From Dehalococcoidia bacterium (GTDB lineage Bacteria > Chloroflexota > Dehalococcoidia > SM23-28-2 > HRBIN24), in contig JANXAP010000003.1 in assembly GCA_025062275.1 (NCBI GenBank), positions 10,950 to 74,949 on the forward strand: a stretch of 64,000 nt of DNA. Direction: 5' to 3'. Positions 3,970 through 59,852 of this stretch are shown one piece after another (positions within the stretch are counted from its first letter, which is position 1; each line of letters begins with the position of its first letter). Below the pieces are notes generated by a model. That model saw only the letters and a list, made by a program, of their open reading frames with translations, made no database searches and had not been told where the DNA came from. The position numbers and the translations under genes were made by a program.

Positions 3970-4491
3970 CTAACGCGAGCGGCGGCGAAAGCGGACAGGC
4001 ATGTGCTTGATGCCGTTGATAAAGTTGGAGCGCATGCGCTCCACCGGCCCCACCACCTCCACGTCGTAGGGGCGCGACAGCAGCTCCTCGAACAGCACCC
4101 GCGCCTCCAGCCGCGCCAGAGAGGCACCCAGACAGAAGTGGGGGCCGCCCGCCCCGAACGCCACATGGTCGTTGGGCTGACGGGTGACGATGAAGGCGTC
4201 AGGGTCGGGAAAGACGTCCTCGTCCCGGTTGGCCGAGATGTACCACATGGTCACCCGATCGCCCGCCTTCATGGGCACGCCGCGGAACTCGGTGTCGCGG
4301 GTCACCGTCCGACGCATGTACATGACGGGCGAGACGTAGCGGAGCATCTCCTCCACCGCCGTGGGCATGAGGGAGAGGTCGCTGCGCAGTAGCTCCATCT
4401 GCTCCGGGTGCTCCGTCAGGGCCAGGAGGCCGCCCGAGATGAGGTTGCGGGTGGTCTCGTTGCCCGCCACCGCCAGCAGCACGAACTGGGC
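3970..4491. repeat. Dispersed repeat copy A: P450 3' half, about 94% nucleotide identity to 58593..59114, with a core of about 215 bp that is near-identical
   Basis: Direct comparison of the two stretches. The spurious small ORFs 3900..4166 and 58541..58789 in the track are near-identical reflections of the same repeat. Confidence 0.85.
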
Positions 4492-5238
4492 ATGACGCTC
4501 CAGGGTGGAGAGCTTCTCGCCGTCCACCTCGGCATGCAGGTAGGTGGTAACCAGGTCTTCCTTCGGTTCCCGCAGCCGCTCCTCCTCCAGGCTGTTGAGG
4601 TAGGCGGCCATCTCCATGGCGGCGCCGGCGATGACCCGCCGGAACTGCTCGATGAGGGCCTGGACCTCCTCCTCCGTCTCGGGAGGCTTCTCGATGACGA
4701 TGCCTCCGTACTCGGGGTCGCCGGCCCCGAGGATCTTGTTGCTCCACTCGAATATCTTGTGGCGGTCCTCATGGGGGACGCCCAGGAAGCGGGCGATGAC
4801 CCGCAGGGGCAGCTCGGCCGCCACCTCGGTCACGAAGTCGCACTCGCCCTTGGCGATGGCGTTGTCCAGGAGCTCGTTGACCATCTGGCGGACGTCAGGC
4901 TCCAGGCGGTTGACCATGCGGGGGGTGAAGCCCGTGCTTACCAGTCGCCGCAGCTTGGTGTGGCGGGGCGGGTCGGTGGTGATCATCATCAGGTTCTGGC
5001 TGGGGAAGAACTCCATGGTGGCCAGGGTGATGCCCTTGGCCGAGGAGAAGGTGGCCGTGTCCATGGAGGCCTTCACAAGGTCATCGTACTTGGTGAGCAC
5101 CCAGAACCCGCCCCCCTCCGGGTCGGGGTGCCAGAAGATGGGCGCCTCGCGCCGCAAGAGCTTGAACATGTGATGCGGCGGCCCCTGAACGAAGGTATCG
5201 CCGTCCAGCAGGTCCACATCCTGGAGCTTGAGGGTCAT
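3970..5238 (-). CDS. Cytochrome P450 (copy 1)
   Basis: Heme-binding loop FGAGGPHFCLGASLA, EXXR (EEMLR) and AGNETT I-helix motif. Start MTLKLQDV chosen over upstream in-frame Met at 5307 by alignment with copy 2. Confidence 0.9.
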   Translation of the reverse strand: MTLKLQDVDLLDGDTFVQGPPHHMFKLLRREAPIFWHPDPEGGGFWVLTKYDDLVKASMDTATFSSAKGITLATMEFFPSQNLMMITTDPPRHTKLRRLVSTGFTPRMVNRLEPDVRQMVNELLDNAIAKGECDFVTEVAAELPLRVIARFLGVPHEDRHKIFEWSNKILGAGDPEYGGIVIEKPPETEEEVQALIEQFRRVIAGAAMEMAAYLNSLEEERLREPKEDLVTTYLHAEVDGEKLSTLERHAQFVLLAVAGNETTRNLISGGLLALTEHPEQMELLRSDLSLMPTAVEEMLRYVSPVMYMRRTVTRDTEFRGVPMKAGDRVTMWYISANRDEDVFPDPDAFIVTRQPNDHVAFGAGGPHFCLGASLARLEARVLFEELLSRPYDVEVVGPVERMRSNFINGIKHMPVRFRRRSR

Positions 5239-5353
5239 GGGCCCACCCTCCTTTCGCTTGCCTCCCTTTTCTGGGCACACTCTAAAACTTAGCATTTGCT
5301 TTGTCAATGGCCCATAGCCGGGCCGTTAAGATGGACAGTGTGCAGGGGGAGAC

Positions 5354-6094
5354 ATGAGTGACGGAGAGGGGCGCTCGAGCCTCCCGAAAGGGCCTCTGGT
5401 CATCAGCCATGCAGGCTGCGCCGGCCATGCGCCCGAGAACACCCTCGCCGGCATCGTCAGGGCGCTGGCCCTGGGCGCCGAGGCAGTGGAGGTGGACGTG
5501 AGGGCCACCGCCGACGGCGTCCCGGTCCTGATGCACGACGAGACGCTGGACCGCACCACCGACGGCCATGGGCCTCTCCGCTCCTACCCCTTGGCCAGGC
5601 TGCGACGCCTGGACGCCGGCAGCGGCGAGAGAGTGCCGACCCTGGCCGAGGCAGTGGCCCAGCTGGCGGGGCGCGCCCTCCTGGTGGCCGAGATAAAAGA
5701 GGGAGGGATCGAGCAACAGGTGGAGGCCGCTCTGGCGCCCCTGGGACAGGAGGAGGCCCAGGTCTGGTCCTTCCTGCCCGATGTGCTGGCATCGTACAGG
5801 CGCATCGCCCCTCACCGGCGGACGGTGCTGCTGGCGGAAGCCAGGTCCATGGCACGGTGGCCCGTTCCGCTGCAGTTGGCAAGGGAGGTAGGGGCCGCTG
5901 GCCTGAGCGTGCGCCACGAATGGGTGACAGCGGAAGTGGCCGCCCAGGTCCGGGAAGCGGGGCTGTCCCTCTACGCGTGGACGGCGGACGAGCCGGCTGA
6001 CCTCCGGCGCCTGCTGCTCCTGGGCCTGGACGGCATAGTCTCCAATTACCCCGAGCGGGCGCTCCTGCTGCGTCGCCAGGCGCTGGGCCATTGA
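5354..6094 (+). CDS. Glycerophosphodiester phosphodiesterase (GDPD family)
   Basis: N-terminal GDPD motifs ISHAG...HAPENTLAG...EVDVRATADGVPVLMHDETLDRTT. Confidence 0.8.
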   Translation: MSDGEGRSSLPKGPLVISHAGCAGHAPENTLAGIVRALALGAEAVEVDVRATADGVPVLMHDETLDRTTDGHGPLRSYPLARLRRLDAGSGERVPTLAEAVAQLAGRALLVAEIKEGGIEQQVEAALAPLGQEEAQVWSFLPDVLASYRRIAPHRRTVLLAEARSMARWPVPLQLAREVGAAGLSVRHEWVTAEVAAQVREAGLSLYAWTADEPADLRRLLLLGLDGIVSNYPERALLLRRQALGH

Positions 6095-6125
6095 GCACCC
6101 TCTGCCCCGGCGCCGCCACCGGGGG

Positions 6126-6154
6126 TTGCCAGGGCACCACCGAGGGCCTACAAT
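6126..6154 (+). promoter_or_regulatory. Sigma-70-like promoter candidate TTGCCA-N17-TACAAT upstream of rplI-dnaB
   Basis: Seen directly: -35 at 6126-6131, 17-nt spacer, -10 at 6149-6154, in a locally AT-richer intergenic region. Confidence 0.4.
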
Positions 6155-6241
6155 TAGACCAGATGTTCTATAATCGCCGACTGGACTGGGGTCGCCGTGG
6201 GGACTTAACCTTGTGGATTGGCGTAGAAATGTTCTGGACAA

Positions 6242-6280
6242 GGGCCGCCGCCGAGGGCTTAGCAGCGGGGGCGGCGGCCC
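6242..6280 (+). promoter_or_regulatory. Very stable 11-bp GC hairpin (GGGCCGCCGCC ... GGCGGCGGCCC, 17-nt loop) in the rplI 5' leader, 24 nt before the start codon
   Basis: Seen directly. No U-tract follows, so it is not a canonical terminator. It could be a leader, stability or processing element. Confidence 0.4.
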
Positions 6281-6304
6281 CATTACCATAAGACGGAGGT
6301 CGGC

Positions 6305-6802
6305 ATGAAGGTCGTCTTCCTGGAGGAAGTGGAGGGCAAGGCCCGCGTGGGCGAGGTGCGGGAGGTGGCCGATGGCTACGCCCGCAACTACCTGTTCCCC
6401 CGCAAGCTGGCAGCCCCGGCGACGCCCCACTACATCAGCATGGCCCGGGCCAAGGCCGAGAAGGAGGCCCGCCGCCAGGCCAAGCTGGACCAGGAGGTCC
6501 GGGAGAAGGTCCTGCCCAGGCTGGAGGGGTGCACCCTGCGTATCGAGGTGCGGGTGGGCGAGCAGGGCAAGCTCTTCGGCTCCGTCACCGCCCTGGACAT
6601 CGCCGAGGCCCTCAAGGAGCAGGCCGGGGTGGAGCTGGACCACCGCCAGGTGCTGCTGTCGGAGCCTATCCGCGAGGTGGGGACCTTTCCGGTGGAGCTG
6701 AGGCTCACCCGCAACGTGCATGCCCGGGTGACGCTGGAGGTGGTGCCCCTGGGTGCCGGTGAGGCCCCTGCCGCTTCCTCTCAGGAGGGCCAAGAGGCGT
6801 GA
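6305..6802 (+). CDS. rplI: 50S ribosomal protein L9
   Basis: [36 protein letters not shown] matches the L9 N-domain. GGAGG Shine-Dalgarno upstream. Confidence 0.9.
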
Positions 6803-8223
6803 ACCGAGGGGGGACCGAAGGCTTGGTCGCTGCCGAGAGGCTACCGCCCCACGACCTGGAGGCCGAGAAGGCGGTGGTGGCCTCCCTGCTGGTGGAGCCG
6901 GAGGCCATCTATCGCGTCGTCACCATCGTCAGCCCCGAGGACTTCTTCCGCGACGAGCACCGCTGGATTTACGAGGCCTGTCGCGACCTGTGGCAGCGGG
7001 GCGAGGCCGTCAACCAGGTGACGGTGGCCCACGAGCTGGCCCGTCGCGGGCTGCTGGAGCAGGCGGGGGGCACCGCCTACCTGTCGCAGCTGGTGGCCGA
7101 GCTGCCCACCCCTCTGGTGGCCGAGCATTACGCTCGCATCGTCCAGCGCGACTCGGTCTATCGTCGGCTCCTGCAGGCTGCCCAGGAGATAGCCCAGGAG
7201 GCCTATCGGGCCGAGGACCCCGACATCGCGCGGGTGCTGGCCCGGGCCGAGGCCCGCATCGCCGCCGTGCGCCAGGTGCAGGAGGTGCGGGACTTCGTGC
7301 ACCTGTCGGAGGTGCTGGAGGGCTGGCAGAAGACCCAGGCCGCCCTCACCGGCCCGGTGGCGGCCGAGGCGCGGGCCATCACCACCGGCTACATGGACCT
7401 GGACACCCTCTTGCTGGGCGGGCTGCGGCGCTCGGAGCTCATCGTGGTGGCCGCTCGCACGGGCCTGGGCAAGACCTCCCTCCTGCTGAACTTCGCTCGG
7501 AACGCCGCCCTGCGCCAGCGCGCGGTGGTGGCCATCTTCAGCCTGGAGATGGCAGCGGAGCAGCTCGCCCAGCGGCTGCTGGCCATGGAATCGGGTGTGG
7601 ACTCGGCCCGCATCGGCTCGGGCGTCATCTCCGACCGGGACGAGCGCCTCATCGCCCGCGCCCTGACCAGGCTGTCGGAGGCGGCCGTCTATATCGACGA
7701 CTCCCCTGTCCTCACGGTGGCCGAGATGCGGGCCAAGGCCCGCCGCCTGCAGGTGGAGCGGGGGCTGGACATGGTCATGGTGGACTACCTACAGCTGGTG
7801 CGGCCCGATATGCGGTTGGAGAACCGGGTCCAGGAGGTATCGTACGTCTCCCGCTCCCTGAAGGCGCTGGCCCGCGACCTGGACGTGCCGGTGGTAGCCG
7901 CAGCCCAGCTTTCCCGCGCCGCCGACGTCCGCGCCAGCCACATCCCCCAGCTCTCCGACCTGCGCGAGTCGGGCAGCATCGAGCAGGACGCCGACGTGGT
8001 CATGTTCATCTACCGCGAGGCGGCCTACGTGCGCCGGGAGGAGTGGGAGGAGATGCACCGGGACAAGCCGGGCAAGGCCTACCCGGCAGAGGACGCCCAG
8101 ATCATCGTGGCCAAGCATCGCAACGGCCCCACCGCCACCGTCCACCTGCGCTTTCGTCAGCGTTTCGCCCGCTTCGAGGACCTGCTGGTGCAGGAGCCCG
8201 AGGCGTGGGAGCCTCAGCCCTAG
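6799..8223 (+). CDS. dnaB: Replicative DNA helicase DnaB
   Basis: Walker A GLGKTS, DnaB motifs SLEM, DYLQL and [14 protein letters not shown] start overlaps the rplI stop (GTGA). Confidence 0.9.
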
Positions 8224-8237
8224 GAGCGAGAGCCATC

Positions 8238-8936
8238 GTGACCCCTCGGGAACAGGGCCAGCCCTTCGGCGGCTTTCCCCCGGGCAGCCTCGCCGTAGCC
8301 GTGCCCACCCCCTTCTTCACCCAGGTGCTGCCGGCCATCGAACGGGTGGAGGAACTGCTGGTCAGCGTCTACTTCTTCTTCGCTCAGGCCCGCACGCGGG
8401 GCGGGCCGCGGGCGATGGCCGAGTCCGAACTCACGGGCGACCCGCTGCTGCTGGAGGCCATGGGCCGCTTCCGGCCCGACGCCGCCGACGGGGTGCGGGA
8501 AGGGCTGGCCCTGGCGGTCCAGCGCGGCACCCTCCTCCAGGCCCAGGACCCGGAGGGAGGGGTCTACTACGCCCTGAACACCCCCTATCATCGCCGCGCC
8601 CTCCAGACGCTGCGCCCGGTGCCGGTGCCTTCGGGAGGCGGGCCAGCCAGCAACATCTTCCGCCTCTATGAGGACAACATCGGCACCATCACCCCCCTCA
8701 TCGCCGAAGAGCTGCGTCAGGCCGAGGAGCGCTATCCCTGGAGCTGGATCGAGGCCGCCTTCCGCGAGGCGGTCGAGCTGAACAAGCGCAGCTGGCGTTA
8801 CATCAAGGCCATCCTGCGCCGTTGGGAAGTGGAGGGGCCATCCCATGAAGCGCCTGGACGAGGTTCTGAGGTCGGCTGGCTGGAGGAGCGCTACCGGCGG
8901 GGCAAGCGGCGAAGGCCCTACAGCTCCTATCTCTGA
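8238..8936 (+). CDS. DnaD-domain replication initiation protein (wHTH N-terminus plus C-terminal DnaD/DDBH2 domain)
   Basis: C-terminal NIFRLYEDNIGTITPLIAEELRQAEERYPWSWIEAAFREAVELNKRSWRYIKAILRRWE carries the DnaD YxxxIxxxW signature. In the track this gene is hidden in the 3' end of the spurious fused ORF 6753..8936. GTG start is uncertain. Confidence 0.65.
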   Translation: MTPREQGQPFGGFPPGSLAVAVPTPFFTQVLPAIERVEELLVSVYFFFAQARTRGGPRAMAESELTGDPLLLEAMGRFRPDAADGVREGLALAVQRGTLLQAQDPEGGVYYALNTPYHRRALQTLRPVPVPSGGGPASNIFRLYEDNIGTITPLIAEELRQAEERYPWSWIEAAFREAVELNKRSWRYIKAILRRWEVEGPSHEAPGRGSEVGWLEERYRRGKRRRPYSSYL

Positions 8937-10227
8937 CGAGGAGGAGCAGCCCTCCTGCCCCCTGTGCGGTGGCGCCGGGCTGGTGCGCAAGGCCGTGCCC
9001 CTGGGCCACCCCGACTTCGGCAAGGCCTTCCCATGCCGTTGCACCCTGGAAGAGGACGCCGAGGCCCGCCGCCAGCGGCTGCAGCGCTTCTCCAACCTCC
9101 GCTTCTACCTGCGCCTTACCTTCGACAACCTGGACCCCCAGGGGCGGGGCCTGGAGGGCGCTGCCGCCCACCGCTATGCCCAGGCGGTGGAGGCCGCCCG
9201 GCAATATGCCGAGAACCCCCGCGGCTTCCTGGTGCTGGCCGGCCCCAGCGGCTGCGGCAAGACCCATCTGGCCGCTGCCGTGGCCAACGCCTGCATAGAG
9301 CGGGGGACCATGGCCCTGTTCATGGCCGTGCCCGACCTGTTGGACCACCTGCGCTCCGCCTACCGTCCCGAGGCCGAGACCACCTACGACGACCTGTTCG
9401 AGCAACTGCGTTCCGTCCCCCTGCTGGTGCTGGACGACCTGGGAGGCCACTCCTCCACCCCCTGGGCCGAGGAGAAGCTCTACCAGCTCATCAACTACCG
9501 CTTCGCCGGCCAGATGCCCACGGTGGTCACCCTAGCGGTGCCGCCGGAGCGGCTGGAGCCGCGGCTGCGCACCCGCCTGTGCGACCCCTCCCTTTCCCAG
9601 GTGCATCTGCTGGGCGACTGGGGGCCGGCAGGGCTGGAGCGCATCGACCACCTGGACTCGCCCCTGCTGCGCACCATGACCTTCGAGAGCTTCGACCCGG
9701 CCCGCATTGCCCGCGACCAGGAAGAGCTGCGCCTGCTGCGGGAGGCCAAGCGGGAAGCTATGCGCTTCGCCCGTCAGCCGCGAGACTGGCTGGTGCTGGC
9801 GGGGCCGCCGGGCAAGGGGAAGACGAGGCTGGCAGCGGCCATCGGCAATTACTGCCGGCAGCGGGGAAGGCCCGTCCTCTTCCTGGTGGTGCCTGACCTG
9901 CTGGACTACCTGCGCTCCACCTTCGATCCCCGCCACGGCCTGGCCTATGACGACACCTTCGAGGCAGTGCGAACGGCGCCGCTGCTGATCCTGGACGACC
10001 TGGGGTCCCACACCGCCACTCCCTGGGCCGAGGAGAAGCTCTACCAGCTCATCAACTACCGCTACAACTGCCTCCTGCCCACCGTCATCACCACCAACCT
10101 GACGGCGTCGCAGCTGGAGCCCAAAGTGAGGGCGAGGCTGACGGACCCCCAGGTGAGCACGGTGCTGCCCATGGGCCGCTTCCAGTTCTACGACGAGGGC
10201 AGAGAGACGGCCGCCCGTCGTCGCTAG
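8845..10227 (+). CDS. DnaI/DnaC-like helicase loader with N-terminal Zn-ribbon and two tandem AAA+ modules
   Basis: CPLCGG...CRC zinc motif, then two homologous modules, each with Walker A (GPSGCGKTHLAAAVA and GPPGKGKTRLAAAIG), Walker B (LLVLDDLG and LLILDDLG) and the repeated WAEEKLYQLINYR. The start overlaps the previous gene by about 90 nt, so it is uncertain. Confidence 0.8.
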   Translation: MKRLDEVLRSAGWRSATGGASGEGPTAPISDEEEQPSCPLCGGAGLVRKAVPLGHPDFGKAFPCRCTLEEDAEARRQRLQRFSNLRFYLRLTFDNLDPQGRGLEGAAAHRYAQAVEAARQYAENPRGFLVLAGPSGCGKTHLAAAVANACIERGTMALFMAVPDLLDHLRSAYRPEAETTYDDLFEQLRSVPLLVLDDLGGHSSTPWAEEKLYQLINYRFAGQMPTVVTLAVPPERLEPRLRTRLCDPSLSQVHLLGDWGPAGLERIDHLDSPLLRTMTFESFDPARIARDQEELRLLREAKREAMRFARQPRDWLVLAGPPGKGKTRLAAAIGNYCRQRGRPVLFLVVPDLLDYLRSTFDPRHGLAYDDTFEAVRTAPLLILDDLGSHTATPWAEEKLYQLINYRYNCLLPTVITTNLTASQLEPKVRARLTDPQVSTVLPMGRFQFYDEGRETAARRR

Positions 10228-14796: not shown

Positions 14797-14871
14797 GGGC
14801 GGTTAGCTCAGTGGGAGAGCGCTTGCTTCACACGCAAGAGGTCGCAGGTTCGAGTCCTGCACCGCCCACCA
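14797..14871 (+). tRNA. tRNA-Val (anticodon CAC)
   Basis: Cloverleaf GGGCGGT/ACCGCCC acceptor, anticodon loop UUCACAC, T-loop GGTTCGAGTCC, 3' CCA encoded. Confidence 0.8.
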
Positions 14872-14890
14872 CTGCCAGGCCAGAAGCGGT

Positions 14891-14978
14891 GCCCAGGTGG
14901 CGGAACTGGCAGACGCGCTGCGTTCAGGGCGCAGTGCCCCGCGCGGGCGTGCGGGTTCGAATCCCGCCCTGGGCACCA
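14891..14978 (+). tRNA. tRNA-Leu (anticodon CAG), class II with long variable arm
   Basis: Acceptor GCCCAGG/CCTGGGC, anticodon loop UUCAGGG, 15-nt variable arm, T-loop GGTTCGAATCC, CCA encoded. Confidence 0.8.
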
Positions 14979-15027
14979 ACGACCCGGGAAAGCTGACAGC
15001 TGCCGGCCTGGCGGCCCATACGGTAGC

Positions 15028-15105
15028 GCGCTCGTAGCTCAGCCCGGACAGAGCGCAGCCCTGCGGAGGCTGAGGTCGTGGGTTCGAATCCCACCGAGCG
15101 CGCCA
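15028..15105 (+). tRNA. tRNA-Arg (anticodon reads GCG)
   Basis: Acceptor GCGCTCG/CGAGCGC, anticodon stem CAGCC/GGCTG with loop CUGCGGA (G37), T-loop GGTTCGAATCC, CCA encoded. Confidence 0.65.
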
Positions 15106-16579: not shown

Positions 16580-17053
16580 ATGCCCCGCCGCAAGGGCCGC
16601 GTAGTCAGGCGCCAGATCCCGCCTGACGTCAAGTACGGAAGCGTCTGGGTGCAGAAGCTCATCAACCACATCATGTGGAACGGCAAGAAGGCTACGGCCG
16701 AGAAGATCGTCTACCGGGCCTTCGACCTGGTGCAGCAGCGCACAGGCGAAGACCCGCTGAAGGTGTTCGAGCAGGCGGTGCGAAACTGCATGCCGGTGCT
16801 GGAGGTGCGCCCTCGACGGGTGGGGGGCGCCACCTACCAGATCCCGGTAGAGGTGCGGCCGGAGCGACAGCTCTCCCTGGCCCTGCGCTGGCTGCGAGAT
16901 GCCGCCCGCTCCCGCCGCGGCCGGCCCATGCACGAGCGGCTGGCCGCTGAGATCATGGACGCCTACCGCGGCACCGGCGTCGCCGTCAAGCGGCGGGACG
17001 ACACCCACCGCATGGCCGAGGCCAACCGCGCCTTCGTCCACTACCGCTGGTAG
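16580..17053 (+). CDS. rpsG: 30S ribosomal protein S7
   Basis: S7 family similarity throughout, position after rpsL. Confidence 0.95.
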
Positions 17054-17079
17054 GCCGCGACCGAGAGAGTGATGGGGTC

Positions 17080-19164
17080 ATGGACAGGACGCCCATAGAA
17101 CGATTGCGCAACATCGGCATCATCGCCCATATCGATGCCGGCAAGACCACCGTGACGGAGCGGATCCTCTTCTTCACCGGCCGCTCCTACAAGATCGGCG
17201 AGGTGGACGAGGGGACGGCCACCATGGACTATCTGCCCCAGGAGCGGGAGCGGGGCATCACCATCACCGCCGCCGCCACCACCTGCGCCTGGCGCGACCA
17301 CACCATCAACATCGTCGACACCCCGGGCCACGTGGACTTCACGGTGGAGGTGGAGCGCAGCCTGCGGGTGCTGGACGGGGCGGTGGTGGTGTTCGAGGCC
17401 GTCCACGGCGTCCAGAGCCAGTCGGAGACGGTCTGGCGGCAGGCCGACCGCTACCGGGTGCCCCGCATCTGCTTCGTCAACAAGATGGACCGCATGGGGG
17501 CCGACTTCTGGCGCACGGTGGAGATGATCCGCGAGCGGCTGGGGGCGCGGCCGGTGGCCGTCCAGATCCCCATCGGGGCCGAGGACTCCTTCCGCGGGGT
17601 GGTGGACCTCATCGAGGAGGTGGCCTGGGTCTTCCCCGACGACCCGAGGGAGCAGCCCGAGCGCCAGCCCATCCCCTATGAGCTGCGGGAGGAGGCCCGC
17701 CGCCGACGCGAGCAGATGATCGAGGCTCTGGCCGAGGTGGACGACCAGGTGCTCATCAGCTACGTGGAAGGGCACCCCCTCACCCCGGCCGAGATCAAGA
17801 AGGCCATTCGCCGCGCCACCATCGCCTACCTCATCACGCCGGTCCTCTGCGGAGCGGCCCTGCGCAACAAGGGCGTGCAGCCCCTGCTGGACGCCATTGT
17901 GGACTACCTGCCTTCGCCCATCGACCTGCCGCCGGTGCGCGGCACCCACCCCGAGACGGGCGAGACCCTGGAGCGGGCGCCCAGAGAGGACGAGCCCTTC
18001 GCCGCCCTGGCCTTCAAGGTGGTGGCCGACCCCTTCGTGGGGAGGCTGGTCTACTTCCGCGTCTATTCGGGCCGCCTGAAGCAGGGTGCCCAGGTATACA
18101 ACTCCACCCGCCGTCAGCGGGAGCGGCTGGGGCGGCTGATGCGCATGCACGCCAACCGCCGCGAGGACATCGACGAGGTGTCGGCGGGGATGATCGCCGC
18201 CACCGTGGGCCTGAAGAACACCTTTACCGGCGACACCCTCTGCGACGAGCAGGCCCCCATCATCCTGGAGGCCATGAAGTTCCCCGAGCCGGTGGTGTCG
18301 GTGGCCATCGAGCCCCGCACCAAGGACGATCAGGACAAGCTGGCCACCACCCTGGCCCGCATGGCCGAGGAGGACCCCACCTTCCGCTACCGCTACGACC
18401 CCGAGACGGGCCAGACCATCATCTCCGGGATGGGCGAGCTGCACCTGGAGATCATCGTCGACCGCATGCGGCGGGAGTTCGGGGTGGAGGCCCACGTGGG
18501 CCGTCCCGAGGTGGCCTACAAGGAGACCATCACCCGCCCGTCCCGGGCCGAGGGGCGTTTCATCCGCCAGTCGGGCGGCCGCGGCCAGTACGGCGTGGTG
18601 GTCATCGAGGCAGAGCCCCTGCCCCGCGGGTCGGGCTTCGTCTTCGAGGACAAGACCACCGGCGGCGTCATTCCCAAGGAGTTCATCCCGGCGGTGGAGA
18701 AGGGCGTGCGCCAGGCCCTGGACACGGGCGCCCTGGCTGGCTACCCCGTCATCGACGTCAAGGTGACGCTGGTGGACGGCCAGTACCACCCGGTGGACTC
18801 GTCGACCTTCGCCTTCGAGATGGCCGGCGCCCTGGCCATGCAGGAGGCCCTGCGTCAGGGGGCGCCGGTGCTGCTGGAGCCTATCATGCGGGTGGAGATC
18901 GCCACCCCGGAGGAGTTCTTCGGCGACATCCTGGGGGACATAACCGCCCGCCGCGGCCACGTGGTGCAGGTGGACCAGCAAGGGCATCTGCGGCTCATCA
19001 CCGCCCTCATACCCCTGGCCGAGCTGTTCAACTACGCCACCGACCTGCGCTCCCTGTCCCAGGGTCGGGCCACCTACACCATGGAGTTCGACCATTACGA
19101 GCCGTTGCCCCAGTCCCTGGCCGATGCCATCGCCGGCCGGGTGCGGGGGGCTGTGCGGAGGTAG
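17080..19164 (+). CDS. fusA: Elongation factor G
   Basis: G-domain motifs [17 protein letters not shown] and NKMD. 694 aa. Confidence 0.97.
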
Positions 19165-27794: not shown

Positions 27795-28247
27795 TGCTGG
27801 CCCACGAACTGAGGCCGCCACGGGGGGCCAAGCACCGGCGCAAGCGCGTCGGCCGGGGCGACAGCAGCGGCCACGGCAGCTATTCGGGCCGCGGCATCAA
27901 GGGCCAGAAGGCCCGCGCTGGCAAGCCCGTGCCCCCCTGGTTCGAGGGCGGCCAGACGCGGCTGGTGAAGGGGCTGCCCAAGATGCGCGGCTTCGTCAAC
28001 CCCTTCAGGGTCGAATACGAGGTGGTCAACGTCGGCCAGCTGAACCGCTTCCCCGCCGGTAGCGAGGTGACGCCGGAGCTGCTGCGCCAGCAGCGTCTGG
28101 TGCGGGACGAGAAGCGCCCCCTAAAGGTGCTGGGCAGCGGCGAGCTGAAGGTGGCCCTGACGGTGCGCGCCCACCGCTTCAGTCAGTCGGCGCGCGAGAA
28201 GATCGAAGCTGCGGGGGGTCGCGCCCTGCCCCTGGAGGCGTCCGAGG

Positions 28248-28264
<17 letters not shown>
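27794..28264 (+). CDS. rplO: 50S ribosomal protein L15
   Basis: Gly/Arg-rich L15 N-terminus RGRGIKGQKARAG. Confidence 0.93.
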
Positions 28265-29615
<1,351 letters not shown>

Positions 29616-29624
29616 GTAAGGGAC

Positions 29625-30281
29625 ATGTTCCTGGTGCTGTTGGGTCTGCCTGGGGCCGGCAAGGGCACCCAGGCTGCCTTTCTGGCCCAACACCTGGGGC
29701 TGGCCCACATCACCACCGGCGAGCTGTTCCGCGAGAACATCCGCCGCGGCACGGAGCTGGGGGAGAGGGCGCGGCCTTACGTGGAGTCGGGGCGACTGGT
29801 GCCCGACGAGATCACCATCGCTATGTTGTTGAAGCGGTTGGAGGAGCCCGACTGCCAGCGAGGATGCCTTCTGGACGGCTTTCCCCGCACCCTGGCCCAG
29901 GCGCGGGCGCTGGACGAGGCCCTCGCCCAGCGGGGGCAGGGCATCGATATGGCCATCTACCTGCGGGTCTCGGAGGAGGAGCTGGTGCGCCGCCTGTCGG
30001 GGCGATGGAACTGCCCCACTTGCGGCGCCGTTTACCACGAGACCAACGCTCCGCCCAGAGTGCCGGGCATCTGCGACCGCGATGGCTCGCGGCTCTACCA
30101 GCGCGAGGACGATCGCCCTGAGGTGGTGCGCACCCGACTGCAGGTGAACATGGCGCAGCTCAGGGAGCTGCTCGAGCACTACCGGGGCCAGGGCAAGCTG
30201 CAGGAGGTGGACGGGGAGCAGCCTGTGGAGGCCGTGAGGGAGCGTCTCCTCGCCCTGGTGACGGCTGCCCGGGAGAGGTGA
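29625..30281 (+). CDS. adk: Adenylate kinase (Zn-lid type)
   Basis: P-loop GLPGAGKGTQA and lid CxxC...CxxC. Confidence 0.95.
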   Translation: MFLVLLGLPGAGKGTQAAFLAQHLGLAHITTGELFRENIRRGTELGERARPYVESGRLVPDEITIAMLLKRLEEPDCQRGCLLDGFPRTLAQARALDEALAQRGQGIDMAIYLRVSEEELVRRLSGRWNCPTCGAVYHETNAPPRVPGICDRDGSRLYQREDDRPEVVRTRLQVNMAQLRELLEHYRGQGKLQEVDGEQPVEAVRERLLALVTAARER

Positions 30282-30290
30282 ACCGGGGAC

Positions 30291-31040
30291 GTGCCCATCG
30301 TCATCAAGTCCGACGAGGAGATCGCCATTATGCGGGAGGCGGGCCGCCACGTGGCCCAAGTCCTGCAGATGCTGGTGGAGCACGTGCGCCCGGGAGTGGT
30401 GGAGAGGGAGCTGGACGAGCTGGTGCGCCGGGAGTTCGCCCGTCGGGGCGTCATTCCCACCTTCCTGGGCTACCAGGGGTATCCGGCTACCGTGTGCATC
30501 TCGGTGAACGACGAGATCGTGCACGGCATCCCCGGCGACCGGGCCTTCCAGGAAGGGGACATCGTCAGCATCGACCTGGGCTGCACCTACCGGGGGTTCG
30601 TGGCCGACTGCGCCGTGACAGTGGGAGTGGGCCGCATCAGCCCGGAGGCGGAGCGCCTCATTCGCGTCACCGAGGAGGCCCTGTGGCGGGGGATAAGGGC
30701 AGCCCGGGCAGGGTCGCGTCTCGGGGCCATCGGCCACGCCATCCAGACCTACGTGGAGGCGGAGGGATTCTCGGTGGTGCGGGAGTACGTGGGGCACGGA
30801 GTGGGGCGGCAGATGCACGAGGACCCGCAGGTCCCCAACTACGGTCCCCCCGACTGGGGGCCGGTGCTGAGGAAGGGGATGGTGCTGGCCATCGAGCCCA
30901 TGGTCAACATGGGCACCTGGCGCACCAAGCGGGACCCCGACGGCTGGACCGTGCGCACCGCCGACGGCTCCCTCTCGGCCCATTTCGAGCACACCATCGC
31001 CATAACCGATGGGGACCCGGTAGTGCTAACGCTGCCCTGA
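30291..31040 (+). CDS. map: Methionine aminopeptidase type I
   Basis: MetAP metal ligands (D..D..H..E..E pattern) and overall similarity. GTG start. Confidence 0.93.
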   Translation: MPIVIKSDEEIAIMREAGRHVAQVLQMLVEHVRPGVVERELDELVRREFARRGVIPTFLGYQGYPATVCISVNDEIVHGIPGDRAFQEGDIVSIDLGCTYRGFVADCAVTVGVGRISPEAERLIRVTEEALWRGIRAARAGSRLGAIGHAIQTYVEAEGFSVVREYVGHGVGRQMHEDPQVPNYGPPDWGPVLRKGMVLAIEPMVNMGTWRTKRDPDGWTVRTADGSLSAHFEHTIAITDGDPVVLTLP

Positions 31041-44909: not shown

Positions 44910-46013
44910 CTAGGGCAGCTCCTGGGCATCCACATCGTCCAGGAGCCAGCGGCCCTCCTGGGCCAGCACCGTGCGGAAGCGCACCTCGAAACGGCGCCAG
45001 ACCACGTCCTCCCCCTCCCGCTGGCGCAGGGAGACCACCATCGCCAGCAGGGCGCGGTCGTCGTCCAACCGACGCGGCGGCTCCACCGCCTCCACCTGGA
45101 CGGCCTCGCTGAAGCGAAAGCCGTTGATGAAGCCCCGCCAGGTCTGGCGCTGCTGGAACTGGGGCGAGAGGTGCTCCCAAGCCTGACGGAAGGCGTCATA
45201 CACGGCCTTTAGATGTTGCCGCACTTCCTCCTCGGGCCGTGCCTGCTCTTGGGCCAGCTCCTGGGCCACCTGGGCCATGTCCTCCTCCTGCCCCTGCTCC
45301 TGCGCCCCCAGCCAGGGCCAAACGTAGCGATAGCGCTGCACGGGCGTCCAGGCCGAGGCCTTCTCCAGGGCAGCACCCACGGCCGACCAGTAGTCCAGGG
45401 CGGCCTGGGCGGGCGTGTGCACTTCTCGCCGCAACGTCCAGCCCTGGCCCTGGCGCCAGTAGATGCGATAGCGGAGAGGGCCCTCCGGCCCCTGCCAGGC
45501 GAGGGCGATCTCGTCGAGGCCATCGCCGTCGGCGTCGAGGGCCAGCAGAGGGCGCACGGCGCCAGGTGGTGCTGGACGGGCGGAAAGTCCCTGCCCCATC
45601 TCCGTCAGGGGCAGCAGGCGAGAGGCGTCCAGGTCGATGAAGTAAGTCGAGGCTTCGGCGGTGACGGCGTAGGTGCCCCTGGGCAGCTCCAGTCCAGGGG
45701 CGAGGCCTTCGGGCCCTTCCAGGGCGAAGAAGGACAGGAGGCCCCATGGCTGCCCCTGTAGGGGCGGCGGGAGGGAGACGATGCGCCAGCGGGGGTCGGC
45801 GGCCAGCGACAGCCCCTGTCCGGGCACCGACTCCAGGGCGACGGCGGGAAAGGCCCGTTGCAGAAGCTCGGCCAGGCCCGGCAGGCGGATCTCGTCGGCG
45901 GGAGGGGGCGATGCCTGGCGGCCGCCGCAGGCCAGCATCAACGCCACCGGCATGGCCGCCAGGGCGAGGGCTGCGCTTCGCAGTCCGGGCAACGAGAACC
46001 GTCGGCCTCCCAT
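44910..46013 (-). CDS. Hypothetical lipoprotein (lipobox LMLAC after signal peptide)
   Basis: MGGRRFSLPGLRSAALALAAMPVALMLACGG signal/lipobox. The rest is unannotatable. The 737-aa track ORF 44910..47123 is an antisense over-extension across the peptidase gene. Confidence 0.6.
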   Translation of the reverse strand: MGGRRFSLPGLRSAALALAAMPVALMLACGGRQASPPPADEIRLPGLAELLQRAFPAVALESVPGQGLSLAADPRWRIVSLPPPLQGQPWGLLSFFALEGPEGLAPGLELPRGTYAVTAEASTYFIDLDASRLLPLTEMGQGLSARPAPPGAVRPLLALDADGDGLDEIALAWQGPEGPLRYRIYWRQGQGWTLRREVHTPAQAALDYWSAVGAALEKASAWTPVQRYRYVWPWLGAQEQGQEEDMAQVAQELAQEQARPEEEVRQHLKAVYDAFRQAWEHLSPQFQQRQTWRGFINGFRFSEAVQVEAVEPPRRLDDDRALLAMVVSLRQREGEDVVWRRFEVRFRTVLAQEGRWLLDDVDAQELP

Positions 46014-46052
46014 GCTACAATGGGGCCGACATCGCAGGCTGGAGCGGAGCAA

Positions 46053-47231
46053 ATGTCCGCGCACGACGCCCTCAAGCAGATTGTAGCGCAGGCTATAGAC
46101 CAGCGGCGTCCGGACCTGGTGGAGCTGAGCCTGCGCATACACTCCCACCCCGAGACAGCCTTCCAGGAACATCAGGCAGCCCGGTGGCTGTCCGACTATC
46201 TGGAGGCCAACGGCTTTCGGGTCGAGAGAGGCATCTGCGGCATCGAGACGGCCTTCCGGGCCACCTACGGTTCGGGGAGGCCCCACATCGCCTTTCTGGC
46301 CGAATACGACGCCCTGCCCGGCATCGGCCACGGCTGCGGACACAACATCATCGGCACCTCGTCGGTGGCGGCAGGCATCGCCGCCAAGGCAGCCGTAGAT
46401 GCTCTGGGGGGCACCATCTTCGTCATCGGCACCCCGGCCGAGGAGGCAGCGGGGGGCAAGGTCTACATGGCCGCCCGTGGCGCCTTCGATGGTCTCGACT
46501 GCGCCATGCTGGTCCACCCGGCCTCTCGCGATTCGGCCGTCACCTATGCCCTGGCCTGCCTCGAGCTGGACGTGGAGTTCTTCGGCCGGGCGTCCCACGC
46601 CGCCGCTGCCCCCGAGCTGGGAGTCAACGCCCTGGACGCTATGGTCATCGCCTTTTCGGCCATCGGTCTCCTGCGGCAACAGGTGCGCAGCGACGCCCGC
46701 ATCCACGGCATCATCACCGATGGCGGCCAGGCAGTGAACGTCATACCCCACCACACGGCAGCCAAGCTGCTGCTGCGGGCCCTGGACGACGACTACCTGG
46801 ACGAGCTGCGGGAGCGGGTGCTGGCCTGCTTTCGGGCCGGGGCTGAGGCCAGCGGCTGCCGCCTGGAGCATCGCTTTGGCGACGAGTCCCGCTACATGAC
46901 CATGCGCACCAACCGGGTGCTGGCCCAGGTGTTCGCCGCCAACCTGGAGGCGCTGGGCCGCCGGCCGGAGGAGCCGCGGGAGCGCCGCGCCCTGGGGTCC
47001 ACCGATATGGGCAACGTGAGCCACCTGGTACCGGCCATTCACCCCACGGTGGCCATCGCGCCGCCGGAGGTCTCCATCCACACCGAGGAGTTCCGCGAGT
47101 TCGCCCGCAGCGAGTCCGGGCACCGGGGACTGGTGGACGCGGCCAAGGCCCTGGCCATGACGGCGGTGGACCTGCTGTCCGACCCCTCCCTGCTGGAGCG
47201 GGCCTGGCAGGAGTTCCGCCAGGGCCCCTGA
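46053..47231 (+). CDS. M20-family amidohydrolase/peptidase (M20D, N-acyl-amino-acid amidohydrolase-like)
   Basis: Metal-ligand motifs HSHPE...GHGCGHN...GTPAEE. Real start ATG 46053, not 45858. Confidence 0.85.
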   Translation: MSAHDALKQIVAQAIDQRRPDLVELSLRIHSHPETAFQEHQAARWLSDYLEANGFRVERGICGIETAFRATYGSGRPHIAFLAEYDALPGIGHGCGHNIIGTSSVAAGIAAKAAVDALGGTIFVIGTPAEEAAGGKVYMAARGAFDGLDCAMLVHPASRDSAVTYALACLELDVEFFGRASHAAAAPELGVNALDAMVIAFSAIGLLRQQVRSDARIHGIITDGGQAVNVIPHHTAAKLLLRALDDDYLDELRERVLACFRAGAEASGCRLEHRFGDESRYMTMRTNRVLAQVFAANLEALGRRPEEPRERRALGSTDMGNVSHLVPAIHPTVAIAPPEVSIHTEEFREFARSESGHRGLVDAAKALAMTAVDLLSDPSLLERAWQEFRQGP

Positions 47232-56182: not shown

Positions 56183-56265
56183 GGCTGTCCACCCCCTCCT
56201 GCCGTTCCATTATACCCCCCCACCCCTCCCTGGCCCCGCTATGGCGCCGCGGGAGAGGGCCACCG

Positions 56266-57031: not shown

Positions 57032-58501
57032 TCAGAGGAGCCGCTGGGCTGCCCGTCTCAGCTCCGCACGGAAATCGGGATGGGCGATAGCGATGAGCTC
57101 CTCCGCCCGCTGGCGATGGTTCTTGCCCATGAGCCTGGCCACCCCGTATTCGGTTATGACGGTGTCGGCGAAGAAGCGCGGGATGGTGATGAGAGACCCC
57201 TCCTCGTGCTTGGCCACGATGCGGGAGACGGTGCCGTTGAGGGCGGTGGACAGGAGGAGGGTGATGGCCCGGCCGCCGCGGGAGAGGACGGCCCCGATGT
57301 GGGCCTCGGGCTGCCCGCCGGTGCCGTTGATCATGCGGGAGCCGAAGACGCTCTCGGAGTTGATCTGGCCCAACAGGTCGATGGAAAGGGCGTTGTTGAT
57401 GGCGTAAAGGTTGTCCAGGCGCGAGAGGTTGCGCAGGTCTAGGACGTACTCGGCGTCGTAGACCTCGAAGGCGGGGTTCTCCACCACCATGGCCAGCTCG
57501 CGGCCGGTGAGGCCGGACCAGGCGGCAGCCACAGCCTTGCCTGTGTGCAAGGTCTTGCGACGGCCGGTCGCGATGCCCCGCTCTACCAGCTCGGCCATGC
57601 CCGGACACGACATCTCGGTGTGGATGCCCAGGTCATGCTTGCGGTCGAAGGCGCCGGCCTTGACCATGAACATGCTCGGCTCGCCGATGCCGATCTGGAG
57701 GGTGGCACCGTCGGGCACTATCTCGCTGAGGTAGCCGGCGATGGTCTGACACTCGGGGCCGGGCTCGCGCATGAGGAGGGCCGTCTTGATGGACTCGGCC
57801 GGCAGCTGGCGAGCGATGCCGGCCCGTAGCGCCAGCACATGTTCCGGGCCGATCTGTTCTATGGAGTCCACCAGCGCCTCGTAGTCGGCCCGCAGGGCAG
57901 GGTCGGGTATCTGCTGTAGCCAGCCCTTCACAACTTCCTTGGTCAGCTCCACGGTCGGCACTTCCACGAATACGTCGATGTCGGACACGTGTACGTAGTT
58001 CTCGCCGTACATGGGGCGGATGCCGGCGTCCACCTCGGCGATGACGGTCTTGGCCCGCCTCAGGTAGCTGCGCTTGTTCCAGTGATGGGGGCCGAAGTAG
58101 ACCCTCCCCTGCTCGTCGGGGGGCGAGACCGTCACCAGGGCCACATCTATGGGCCGCGCCTCGGGACGGCCCTCGTCCAGGGGCTTGAACTGGGTGGTGA
58201 ACAGGTTTGGGAGGTAGGTGACCCTCCCGTCGTCGTGGGCCTCGCGGGCCACGTTGCCGATGAACAGCTCTATCTCCACCGTGAACAGGTGCTGCAGCCC
58301 CGGCTGCAGCCAGCCAGGGTCGCTGGTGGGGGCCGACAGGCGCACCTCCAGGCCCCCCAGCTCTTGCCCACGGCGAAAGACGGCCTCGGGCAGGACTCTC
58401 GGGCCGGCCAGCGGCACCACCACCCTGTGCCCCGGCCGGACACGGCTGACCGCCTCGTCCACCGATGCGAGCTTACGCTTGTATTCCTCGCGCCAGTCCA
58501 T
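57032..58501 (-). CDS. Acetyl-CoA hydrolase/transferase family CoA-transferase (4-hydroxybutyrate or succinyl-CoA:acetate CoA-transferase-like)
   Basis: 489 aa with family-wide similarity (MDWREEYKRKLASVDEAVSRVRPGHRVVV ... GIGEPS ... GTGGQ). Confidence 0.8.
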   Translation of the reverse strand: MDWREEYKRKLASVDEAVSRVRPGHRVVVPLAGPRVLPEAVFRRGQELGGLEVRLSAPTSDPGWLQPGLQHLFTVEIELFIGNVAREAHDDGRVTYLPNLFTTQFKPLDEGRPEARPIDVALVTVSPPDEQGRVYFGPHHWNKRSYLRRAKTVIAEVDAGIRPMYGENYVHVSDIDVFVEVPTVELTKEVVKGWLQQIPDPALRADYEALVDSIEQIGPEHVLALRAGIARQLPAESIKTALLMREPGPECQTIAGYLSEIVPDGATLQIGIGEPSMFMVKAGAFDRKHDLGIHTEMSCPGMAELVERGIATGRRKTLHTGKAVAAAWSGLTGRELAMVVENPAFEVYDAEYVLDLRNLSRLDNLYAINNALSIDLLGQINSESVFGSRMINGTGGQPEAHIGAVLSRGGRAITLLLSTALNGTVSRIVAKHEEGSLITIPRFFADTVITEYGVARLMGKNHRQRAEELIAIAHPDFRAELRRAAQRLL

Positions 58502-58592
58502 CCTGATACCCCCGACTGACGTCGTCTCTCTCGCCCTCCGTTAGGGTATGCCGCGCCCGCCTGCGGCCGCCCGAGGAGCTGGGGACAGCCCC

Positions 58593-59114
58593 CTAGCGGG
58601 AGCGGCGGCGGAAGCGGACGGGCATGTGCTTGATGCCGCTGACGAAATTGGAGCGGAGCCACTCCACCGGCCCCACCACCTCCACGTCGTAGGGGCGCGA
58701 CAGCAGCTCCTCGAACAGCACCCGCGCCTCCAGCCGCGCCAGAGAGGCACCCAGGCAGAAGTGGGGGCCGCCCGCCCCGAACGCCACATGGTCGTTGGGC
58801 TGACGGGTGACGATGAAGGCGTCAGGGTCGGGAAAGACGTCCTCGTCCCGGTTGGCCGAGACGTACCACATGGTCACCCGGTCGCCAGCCTTCATGGGCA
58901 CGCCGCGCACTTCCGTGTCTCGGGTGACGATGCGCGCCATGTACATGACGGGCGAGACGTAGCGGAGCATCTCCTCCACTGCCGTGGGCACCAGCGAGAG
59001 GTCGCTGCGCAGCAGCTCCATCTGCTCCGGGTGCTCCGTCAGGGCCAAGAGGCCGCCCGAGATGAGGTTGCGGGTGGTCTCGTTGCCCGCCACCGTCAGC
59101 AGCACGAACTGGGC
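58593..59114. repeat. Dispersed repeat copy B (P450 3' half)
   Basis: See copy A. Confidence 0.85.
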
Positions 59115-59852
59115 GAACCGCTCCAGATCGCTCAGCCTCTCGCCGTCCACCTCGGCGTTCAGGTACACCGTCACCAGGTCTTCCTTCGGCTCGCGCATTC
59201 GCTCCTCTTCCAGCCGCCGAAGGTAAGAGGCCATCGCGGCGATGGTGTTCTCGGAGCGACGGACGAACTGCTGCGGCGCCGGAGCCGCCTCGGCCTCGGT
59301 CGTTCCGGCACGGCTGTACTCGGGGTCCATGGCGCCGATCAGGGCGTTGCTCCATTCAAAGATGAGGTGTCGGTCCTCTTTGGGAACGCCGATGAAGCGG
59401 GCGATGACCAGGAGGGGTAGCTGGGACGATACCTCGGTGACGAAGTCGCACTCACCCTTGGCGATGGCGCTGTCCAACAACTCGTTCACGATCTCGCGGA
59501 TGTCGGGCTCGAGGAGGCTTATCATGCGCGGCGTGAACCCGGGGCTCACGAGACGCCGCAGTTTGGTGTGCCGGGGCGGGTCCGTGGTCACCATCATGGG
59601 GAACTGGTTGGGGCTCACGATGGATTCCAGGGTGATACCCCTGGACGAGGAGAAGGTAGACGTGTTCATGGAGACCTTCACCAGGTCCTCGTACTTGGTG
59701 AGAACCCAGAAGCCTCCCGCGACGGGGTCGGGATGCCAGTAGACGGGAGCCTGCTGGCGCAGGACCTTGAAAAGGTGATGGGGCGGCCCCGAAAGGAAGA
59801 CGTCCAGGTCCAGGAGGTTGACGTCCTTCAGCTCGGTCGTCATCGGTCTCAC
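58593..59852 (-). CDS. Cytochrome P450 (copy 2, paralog of 3970..5238)
   Basis: Same heme loop FGAGGPHFCLGASLA. C-terminal 150 aa is about 97% identical to copy 1, N-terminal half about 70%. Start at M1 or at MTTELKDV (59843). Confidence 0.9.
   Translation of the reverse strand: MRPMTTELKDVNLLDLDVFLSGPPHHLFKVLRQQAPVYWHPDPVAGGFWVLTKYEDLVKVSMNTSTFSSSRGITLESIVSPNQFPMMVTTDPPRHTKLRRLVSPGFTPRMISLLEPDIREIVNELLDSAIAKGECDFVTEVSSQLPLLVIARFIGVPKEDRHLIFEWSNALIGAMDPEYSRAGTTEAEAAPAPQQFVRRSENTIAAMASYLRRLEEERMREPKEDLVTVYLNAEVDGERLSDLERFAQFVLLTVAGNETTRNLISGGLLALTEHPEQMELLRSDLSLVPTAVEEMLRYVSPVMYMARIVTRDTEVRGVPMKAGDRVTMWYVSANRDEDVFPDPDAFIVTRQPNDHVAFGAGGPHFCLGASLARLEARVLFEELLSRPYDVEVVGPVEWLRSNFVSGIKHMPVRFRRRSR

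Follow-up and report, generated by a model that had tools for sequence, protein, structure and literature searches.

The window analysed here is a stretch of 64,000 nucleotides of DNA with 69% G+C from a Dehalococcoidia (Chloroflexota) metagenome-assembled genome (MAG; assembly GCA_025062275.1, contig JANXAP010000003.1, positions 10,950 to 74,949), which contains two cytochrome P450 genes, hereafter copy 1 and copy 2. These genes are very probably old paralogs at two conserved loci, and two blocks in their 3' halves have been recurrently homogenised by gene conversion, in the window organism (W) as well as in a related Dehalococcoidia species (D, GCA_035574155.1). That gene conversion leads to concerted evolution in bacteria is well established, for example for the tuf genes and the rRNA operons. 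The process is already known, and the merit of the present case lies in how sharp the mosaic is, in its recurrence in a second species and in the fact that the spared islands match the predicted substrate recognition sites (SRS) 5 and 6.

Mosaic identity of the two P450 genes

An original prediction, made from the sequence of the window, claimed two P450 paralogs 55 kb apart with mosaic identity, and this is confirmed by the open reading frames (ORFs), the Pfam matches and the alignment. The genes and their segments are listed below, in nucleotides (nt) and amino acids (aa).

P450 copy 1: 3970-5238, minus strand, 422 aa; ORF and Pfam p450 match
P450 copy 2: 58593-59843, minus strand, 416 aa from the ATG used by gene callers, with a GTG at 59852 as alternative start; ORF and Pfam p450 match
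Diverged 5' part: 4492-5238, partner 59115-59843, minus strand; aa 1-249, SRS1-3; 72% nt identity, 64% aa identity
Block B1: 4315-4491, partner 58938-59114, minus strand; aa 250-308, from the I-helix AGNETT to the K-helix ExxR; 7 differences in 177 nt
Unconverted patch: 4285-4314, partner 58908-58937, minus strand; aa 309-318, RRTVTRDTEF versus ARIVTRDTEV; SRS5
Block B2: 4039-4284, partner 58662-58907, minus strand; aa 319-400, meander, Cys pocket FGAGGPHFCLG and L helix; 4 differences in 246 nt
Unconverted C-terminal tail: 3973-4038, partner 58596-58661, minus strand; VERMRSNFING versus VEWLRSNFVSG, 18% nt divergence; SRS6

In the codon-based alignment, copy 1 and copy 2 are 81% identical (234 differences in 1248 aligned nt), but this overall value conceals two very different regimes. 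The first 747 nt (the 5' part) show only 72% nt identity, whereas the region 4491-4039 has 23 differences in 453 nt, that is, 94.9% identity, close to the predicted 94% over about 450 bp. Within it, only 3 differences are found in the 225 nt of 4263-4039, which agrees with the near-identical block of about 215 bp that had been noticed. At the protein level, the identity is 64% for aa 1-249 versus 94% for aa 250-422; the predicted numbers are therefore essentially right, the value given for the N-terminal halves having been about 70%. The alignment is free of gaps in the 3' half, where adding 54623 to a position in copy 1 gives the corresponding position in copy 2. When the window is compared with itself, the homology between the copies covers only 5241-3969 versus 59846-58592 (81%) and ends at the ORF ends, and no shared flanking DNA or other link between the two loci is found in this comparison.

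The break is statistically sharp. The maximum chi-squared breakpoint is located at 4491/59114 with a chi-squared of 84, which was reached by 0 of 2000 permutations when all sites were used and likewise by 0 of 2000 when only the third positions of identical codons were considered. The longest identical run, 106 nt (4238-4133), was matched by 0 of 5000 permutations. In sliding windows, dS falls from about 0.5-1.4 in the 5' part to about 0-0.05 in the two near-identical 3' blocks, and consequently the mosaic is not explained by protein conservation alone. With both the pairwise alignment and the sliding-window check carried out, uniform divergence along the gene, which had been named as a possible refutation, is not seen. 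The third codon positions are very rich in G+C throughout (GC3 of 0.8-0.98); GC-biased conversion was considered and dropped, since the GC3 of 0.90-0.98 in the blocks is not clearly above the 0.87-0.95 of the rest and gives no signal.

The similar zone is not continuous. A 30-bp patch (4314-4285) contains 12 differences, that is, 40% mismatch, with saturated third positions (0.8); therefore, the patch is old DNA and does not merely carry selected replacements. Moreover, the last 69 nt of copy 1 (4038-3970) have 13 differences and are not homogenised. The two blocks on either side of the patch differ in divergence between the copies of W, with 4.0% in B1 and 1.6% in B2. Thus, of the single recent tract in the original prediction, conversion is retained, while the tract is in fact two blocks (4491-4315 and 4284-4039) split by the patch; similarly, the heme-binding part is homogenised as predicted, whereas the extreme C-terminus (SRS6, the last 66 coding nt) is spared.

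Four-gene comparison with a second species

Do the two paralogs evolve in concert in other genomes as well? Both loci were found in species D. The copy 2 locus of D (L099) is collinear with 60304-48683 of the window over 11.7 kb at 86% identity and has the same order of nitronate monooxygenase (NMO), P450 and CoA transferase genes, while the copy 1 locus (L108) has the gene order DnaB-L9-GDPD-P450-202aa-MFS. As both loci are syntenic in W and D, the duplication is older than the split of the two species. The four genes were then compared by site patterns, namely O (orthology: the two copy 1 genes agree and the two copy 2 genes agree, with the pairs differing) and C (concerted: the two copies of W agree and the two copies of D agree, with the pairs differing), and by a four-point quartet bootstrap with 1000 replicates. 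The results are as follows, in copy 1 coordinates.

5' part, 5238-4492: O 66, C 7, X 5; orthology topology in 1000/1000
B1, 4491-4315: O 0, C 10; concerted topology in 999/1000
Patch, 4314-4285: O 4, C 0; orthology topology in 998/1000
B2, 4284-4039: O 1, C 14; concerted topology in 1000/1000
Tail, 4038-3973: O 7, C 0; orthology topology in 1000/1000

That is, five segments along the gene alternate between the orthology and the concerted topology. Summed over both blocks, there are 24 concerted sites versus 1 orthology site, and the contrast between the blocks and the rest of the gene is highly significant (Fisher's exact test, p=7e-17). Only in B1 and B2 is each paralog nearer to its partner in the genome (distance 0.016-0.051) than to the ortholog at the corresponding locus of the other species (0.10-0.13), which bears out the predicted gene conversion: concerted patterns are nearly confined to the 3' blocks, whereas orthology patterns prevail in the rest of the gene. 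Third codon positions account for 22 of the 24 concerted sites. After polarisation with outgroups, the derived state is found in W at 7 of the 24 sites and in D at 4, with 13 ambiguous. In the blocks, the distances within a genome (about 0.01-0.09 in both species) are lower than those between species (0.10-0.12), and this, together with the presence of derived states in both W and D, indicates that conversion took place after speciation in both lineages. The mosaic boundaries of the two species agree to 1-2 nt (4492/4493, 4314/4315 and 4038). The search for the same mosaic in relatives, as had been suggested, thus gave a matching block structure with the substitutions of species D itself. Based on these sequences, conversion after speciation in both W and D with the same boundaries is strongly supported, and the single event originally envisaged is replaced by recurrent, independent ones in two species.

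The genome of bacterium HR24, which serves only as a copy-1-like outgroup, agrees with the four-gene result as far as its sequence goes. Its copy-1-like gene (L012) differs from copy 1 by 12.6% in the 5' part and by 14.8% in the blocks, and the latter compares with 5.1% between copy 1 and copy 2. HR24 is the only close genome among the contig-scan matches listed, and its flanks are unrelated to the window; a copy 2 partner was not recovered in this genome among the same matches. The proteins P0003, P0004, P0005 and P0008 were rejected as orthologs, because they sit at a third type of locus, and were used as outgroups.

Copy 2 of D has one further peculiarity. In the stretch at about 4980-4775 (copy 1 coordinates), it is much closer to copy 1 of D (0.073) than to copy 2 of W (0.184), in 1000 of 1000 bootstraps. 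Most simply, this would be a D-specific conversion from copy 1 to copy 2, although it may also reflect an older event followed by change in copy 2 of W.

Spared islands and substrate recognition sites

The matches to the Pfam p450 family (PF00067) have E=4.6e-31 over aa 19-394 for copy 1 and E=3e-30 for copy 2, both well over the gathering score. The superfamily motif set (FxxGxxxCxG, ExxR and (A/G)GxxT) is complete in both translations, which contain AGNETT in the I-helix, EEMLR (ExxR) in the K-helix and FGAGGPHFCLG in the Cys pocket. The top match among solved structures is the reconstructed CYP125MRCA (E=2.6e-143, 57.7% identity over 397 aligned residues), and the natural CYP124 (E=2.6e-96), CYP126 (2.7e-94) and CYP125A1 (about 3e-90) score nearly alike. 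Note that the criterion for CYP125 is at least 40% aa identity to a named member, and that the 57.7% refers to the artificial CYP125MRCA and not to a natural enzyme. By sequence similarity, both proteins are assigned to the CYP125/124/126 group; the activity typical of CYP125, hydroxylation of cholesterol or cholest-4-en-3-one at the terminal C26/27, is here only a predicted function, and the JGI label "cholest-4-en-3-one 26-monooxygenase" is an automatic annotation.

The SRS were mapped by alignment to 8vxi together with published ligand-contact lists. The 5' boundary of the similar zone, 4491 (aa 250), lies just ahead of the I-helix AGNETT. The homogenised parts are those from the I-helix to the K-helix, and the meander, the Cys pocket and the L helix, while the 5' part with SRS1-3, the SRS5 patch and the SRS6 tail are kept different. 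For the patch, the copy 1 series P304-V305-x-x-M308-x-R310 fits the published CYP125A1 series P312, V313, F316 and R318 (PMC12429392), the spacing match being our own reading of the alignment. M308 is the equivalent of F316 in CYP125A1, and therefore the patch begins directly after the F316 equivalent, inside SRS5; its replacements are R309A, T311I and F319V. For the tail, F406 of copy 1 aligns with F400 of CYP125MRCA (alignment to 8vxi), which is the equivalent of W414 in CYP125A1 (PMC12100521). The W414 position is thus Phe in copy 1, as in the reconstructed ancestor CYP125MRCA. The neighbouring I407 aligns with L415 of CYP125A1, and in structures of CYP125A1 the ligand is contacted by W414 as well as by L415 (PMC12429392). 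The tail replacements R401W, M402L, I407V and N408S flank F406.

Consequently, the boundaries of the patch and the tail coincide with SRS5 and SRS6 as mapped by this alignment, and the predicted retention of different substrate-recognition regions is upheld, since the 5' part (SRS1-3), SRS5 and SRS6 keep paralog-specific sequence in both W and D. The tail reads VERMRSNFING in the copy 1 types of W, D and HR24, and VEWLRSNFVSG in copy 2 of W and D; such conservation per paralog across species is to be expected if purifying selection acts on two distinct pockets. The two enzymes share a near-identical catalytic and proximal core and differ in the regions predicted to contact the substrate.

The F-G region was also compared between the species. 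At about 59115-59382 of copy 2 (the equivalent in copy 1 is 4492-4774), the difference between the copy 2 orthologs of W and D reaches 31% in nt and includes indels, compared with 9.7% between the copy 1 orthologs in the same region. The putative SRS2/3 region of copy 2 has undergone very fast evolution or replacement.

Independent assemblies and hybrid contigs

Could the mosaic be produced by the assembly? At least 22 contigs, belonging to several MAGs and metagenomes, encode a protein identical to copy 2, and its neighbours are the same every time. The copy 2 genes of L001-L006 and L011 differ from that of the window by 0-3 nt, and the one on the 383-kb contig JAVQSQ010000001.1 (GCA_033581795.1) is identical to it, while the copy 1 alleles on five further contigs (L092-L096) differ by 3-8 nt. 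The exact window proteins have each been deposited under two NCBI accessions from Dehalococcoidia MAGs, MCS7275430.1 and MDW8008212.1 for copy 1 (the cluster member P0124 is identical) and MCS7275501.1 and MDW8008283.1 for copy 2 (cluster member P0138). Around the shared blocks, the patch and the tail remain specific to each copy, and therefore a simple collapse is excluded. Assembly error, the other refutation considered at the outset, is excluded for the window, because the mosaic has been assembled independently many times.

Some public entries are nevertheless hybrids, namely the contigs L098 and L097 and the proteins P0002, P0006, P0136 and P0137. L098 (JGI 3300002851) carries the NMO gene, copy 2 as far as about 4348-4315, then copy 1 to the stop codon, followed by the 202-aa and MFS genes. 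L097 (ERZ508595, about 4x coverage) carries copy 1 as far as about 4132-4039 and continues with the tail of copy 2 and the CoA transferase gene; P0136 and P0137 have the same hybrid arrangement. Together, L098 and L097 represent the two reciprocal products of a crossover within the shared blocks. Between the two copies lie dnaB, rplI, ahcY, three tRNA genes and a gene of the phosphoglucomutase family. With dnaB, rplI, the tRNA genes and ahcY lost, a deletion of the L098 type should be lethal, barring a second dnaB, and a crossover deletion is accordingly implausible. L098 is most likely an assembly chimera; its flanks are both 99.8-99.9% identical to the window, and strain identity therefore does not discriminate chimerism here. 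In L097, the first 200 nt or so come from another copy 1 allele, which suggests mixing. On the whole, the hybrid contigs and proteins are probably assembly chimeras across the shared blocks of 100-220 nt, although the L097-type hybrid may be the real junction of a 54.6-kb tandem duplication. A metagenome scan with a probe for the coding stretch AFIVTRQPNDHVA gave 4 loci, too few to compare hybrid and parental frequencies.

In addition, the metagenomic copy 1 alleles P0132, P0133 and P0134 seem to combine two allele types, that of the window and that of P0129, by strain recombination or by consensus mixing of co-occurring strains in the assembly.

Proposed mechanism and alternative explanations

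The order of events is very probably as follows. The paralogs were duplicated before the split of W and D and came to lie at two conserved chromosomal loci, as direct repeats 54.6 kb apart, and B1 and B2 have been repeatedly homogenised by non-reciprocal homologous recombination, that is, intrachromosomal gene conversion between these repeats. For the molecular pathway we infer, by analogy with the tuf genes, a RecA-mediated strand invasion limited by mismatch repair. In Salmonella, tuf conversion is RecA-dependent and covers about 500 nt in either direction, and MutS reduces it 100-1000 fold and shortens the tracts when the sequences are mismatched (PMC5485169). Separate conversion events, each stopping at the highly mismatched patch, would fit the different divergence of B1 and B2. 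Meanwhile, the 5' part, the 30-bp SRS5 patch and the last 66 coding nt have kept their paralog-specific sequences in both species. The islands may have been spared by purifying selection on distinct pockets, by the 40% mismatch aborting heteroduplex extension, or by both.

Several points weigh against this explanation. Both paralogs are found in two species only, and the conserved boundaries rest on two lineages. Recombination is deduced from assembled sequences and not from reads, and the functions of the two enzymes are predictions. Selection and the mismatch barrier are not separable for the spared islands with the present data. Finally, the donor in W is only weakly hinted at. The third-position distance between copy 1 and the HR24 gene is 0.364 in the blocks versus 0.277 in the 5' part, and the former is near the paralog level of 0.37, which gives a weak hint, of about 2 standard errors, that the transfer in W may have been from copy 2 to copy 1.

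Other explanations have to be weighed against the same data. If the 3' blocks were the result of collapse or chimeric joining of more divergent paralogs, the hybrid contigs L098 and L097 would illustrate how such a repeat can mislead assemblers; but several precise double switches would be needed for each copy to retain its own patch and tail, the mosaic recurs in numerous assemblies made independently of each other from different samples, with contigs of up to 383 kb, and species D has a matching block structure with species-specific substitutions, so that such an artefact is extremely improbable. We give equally little credence to the absence of any exchange, with the 3' blocks held similar by very strong purifying selection on the protein together with codon usage or RNA structure. 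It is true that the elements most conserved among P450s (I-helix, ExxR and Cys pocket) are located in the blocks and that GC3 is very high everywhere. However, the blocks differ by 10-12% between the species, mostly at third positions, versus 1.6-5% within a genome, there are 24 concerted sites versus 1 orthology site, and constraint cannot yield species-specific synonymous states common to both paralogs. A single recent conversion confined to the genome of W would account for the very young age of B2 there, whose 4 differences in 246 nt amount to about 1/8 of the W-D divergence. It is very unlikely, though, considering that B1 and B2 differ in divergence (4.0% versus 1.6%) and are split by a patch of ancient divergence, that species D homogenised the same blocks independently, and that copy 2 of D has its additional copy-1-like stretch at about 4980-4775 with full bootstrap support (1000/1000).

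Recurrent conversion in both species is thus preferred, and the alternatives that remain concern the reason why the islands are spared. The patch and the tail may have been spared mechanically rather than by selection, since divergence blocks the heteroduplex and mismatch repair aborts the exchange, and we put this at slightly below an even chance. The patch, with its 40% mismatch and saturated third positions (0.8), is indeed old DNA, MutS has the strong effect on tuf conversion in Salmonella quoted above (PMC5485169), and B1 and B2 differ in age, as separate events stopping at the patch would. On the other hand, each paralog has kept its own residues in the tail and at position 309 between species, the islands match CYP125A1 ligand contacts (the neighbours of F316/R318, and W414/L415), and a mechanical barrier leaves unexplained why the divergence arose exactly there. 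A bolder combination, that concerted evolution is modular and delimited by selection and that L097, P0136 and P0137 are real junctions of a 54.6-kb tandem duplication that segregates among natural populations, is conceivable but rather doubtful as a whole. Under such a modular scheme, conversion would keep the catalytic and proximal (redox-partner-facing) core identical, perhaps because of a common redox partner, and the SRS5 and SRS6 islands and the SRS1-3 half may be protected, each paralog needing its own substrate pocket.

Comparison with known systems

The closest parallel is found in tufA and tufB, which are likewise two dispersed paralogs in different contexts, subject to non-reciprocal recombination that recurs in several lineages (PMC5485169, PMC6053082), with conversion tracts of a few hundred nt. 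However, the tuf genes are homogenised over their full length and have the same function, whereas the P450 pair is homogenised in only two internal blocks, with 64% protein identity in the rest. In a survey of prokaryotes, concerted evolution that is both long-lasting and recurrent was reported for 26 genes, and P450 genes are not mentioned in it (PMC6053082). Among animals, the available text of two reports describes conversion between P450 paralogs with the SRS in a regime of their own, in primate CYP2D (PMC4419802) and macaque CYP1A1/1A2 (PMC3199271). Segments are exchanged among paralogs and the SRS regions evolve apart there too; but, as far as that text goes, those genes are tandem or clustered and contain introns, while the bacterial pair is 54.6 kb apart and has sharp SRS5 and SRS6 islands in two species. 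The AGNETT, ExxR and Cys-pocket motifs are those of CYP125, CYP124 and CYP126, the omega-hydroxylases of steroids and methyl-branched lipids in Actinobacteria, and several copies per genome are common in the CYP125 family according to the available part of one study (PMC12100521). Unlike the actinobacterial group, the present genes belong to a Dehalococcoidia (Chloroflexota) MAG, their nearest match is a reconstructed ancestor and their substrate specificity is predicted only.

The pair is a clean natural case, seen in two species, of a single bacterial enzyme gene divided between recombination and functional divergence with a precision of a few dozen bases. The part of a CYP125-like P450 that tolerates swapping is the core from the I-helix to the L-helix, and each paralog is defined by the 5' part with SRS1-3 (chiefly the F-G region), by the 10 residues of the SRS5 patch and by the hairpin of SRS6; together, they amount to a ready chimera design for enzyme engineering. 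There are also two practical consequences. Gene trees built from whole P450 sequences would misdate this duplication, and the shared blocks of 100-220 nt probably create chimeric contigs and hybrid proteins in public metagenome databases, such as P0002, P0006, P0136 and P0137.

Genomic context of the two copies

The following features were identified around and between the two genes.

Sigma-70-like promoter match: 5307-5279, minus strand; upstream of copy 1, TTGACA-17-TAGAGT, 10/12 matches
Terminator-like hairpin and T tract: 3949-3926, minus strand; 20 nt past the copy 1 stop, 10 pairs (9 GC), loop of 4, tail TTTGTGTGGA
DnaB replicative helicase gene: 6799-8223, plus strand; between the copies, Pfam DnaB_C E=7.1e-94 and DnaB E=2.3e-31
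Acetyl-CoA hydrolase/transferase family gene: 57032-58501, minus strand; 91 nt downstream of copy 2, AcetylCoA_hyd_C E=4.1e-46, conserved neighbour
Nitronate monooxygenase family gene: 59951-61123, minus strand; directly upstream of copy 2, Pfam NMO E=3.6e-76, conserved neighbour

Copy 1 is apparently monocistronic and is located between a divergent GDPD gene and the genes for a 202-aa protein and an MFS transporter. The promoter upstream of it is a consensus match only, compared with an average of 0.1 sites in shuffled sequence, and no promoter-like site of this kind was found for copy 2. As had been predicted, only copy 1 has a canonical intrinsic terminator, and no comparable hairpin is present 3' of copy 2. 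The latter lies in a co-directional run of genes, NMO-P450-CoA transferase-COXG/SRPBCC-aldehyde dehydrogenase-TPP enzyme. Judging from gene content only, this operon context suggests that a terminal methyl group is oxidised to an acid, which is then activated with CoA.

Between the copies, a tRNA cluster at 14797-15105 (plus strand) comprises Val(CAC), Leu(CAG) and Arg(GCG), on which ARAGORN and Rfam agree. Near the DnaB gene, an ORF at 8845-10227 (plus strand, 460 aa) contains two IstB/DnaC-like AAA+ ATPase domains. It includes the only other repeat in the self-comparison of the window, 9229-9560 versus 9790-10121, with 72% DNA identity over 335 nt; because of this identity between its two halves, the product is predicted to be a tandemly duplicated helicase-loader-like protein. 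Three long ORFs of 684-937 aa (17041-19095, 28179-30992 and 44910-47123, all on the minus strand) have no Pfam match and overlap ORFs on the opposite strand, and they may be shadow ORFs in DNA with 69% G+C rather than genes.

Related P450 genes were also observed in other contexts. The copy-1-like genes L012 (bacterium HR24, BEIA01000023.1), L110, L112 and L109 show 86-90% nt identity, and their surroundings have no DNA similarity to either locus of the window; it appears that the P450 gene has moved or that the neighbourhood is not conserved there. The third type of locus (L100-L107, with P0003, P0004, P0005 and P0008) carries P450 genes of the same clade with 74-79% aa identity, divergent from a gene for a Pfam-less protein of about 210 aa and with an AidB-like acyl-CoA dehydrogenase alongside. 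Some of these third-locus genes share samples with window-type genes (JGI 3300009585 and 3300045859).

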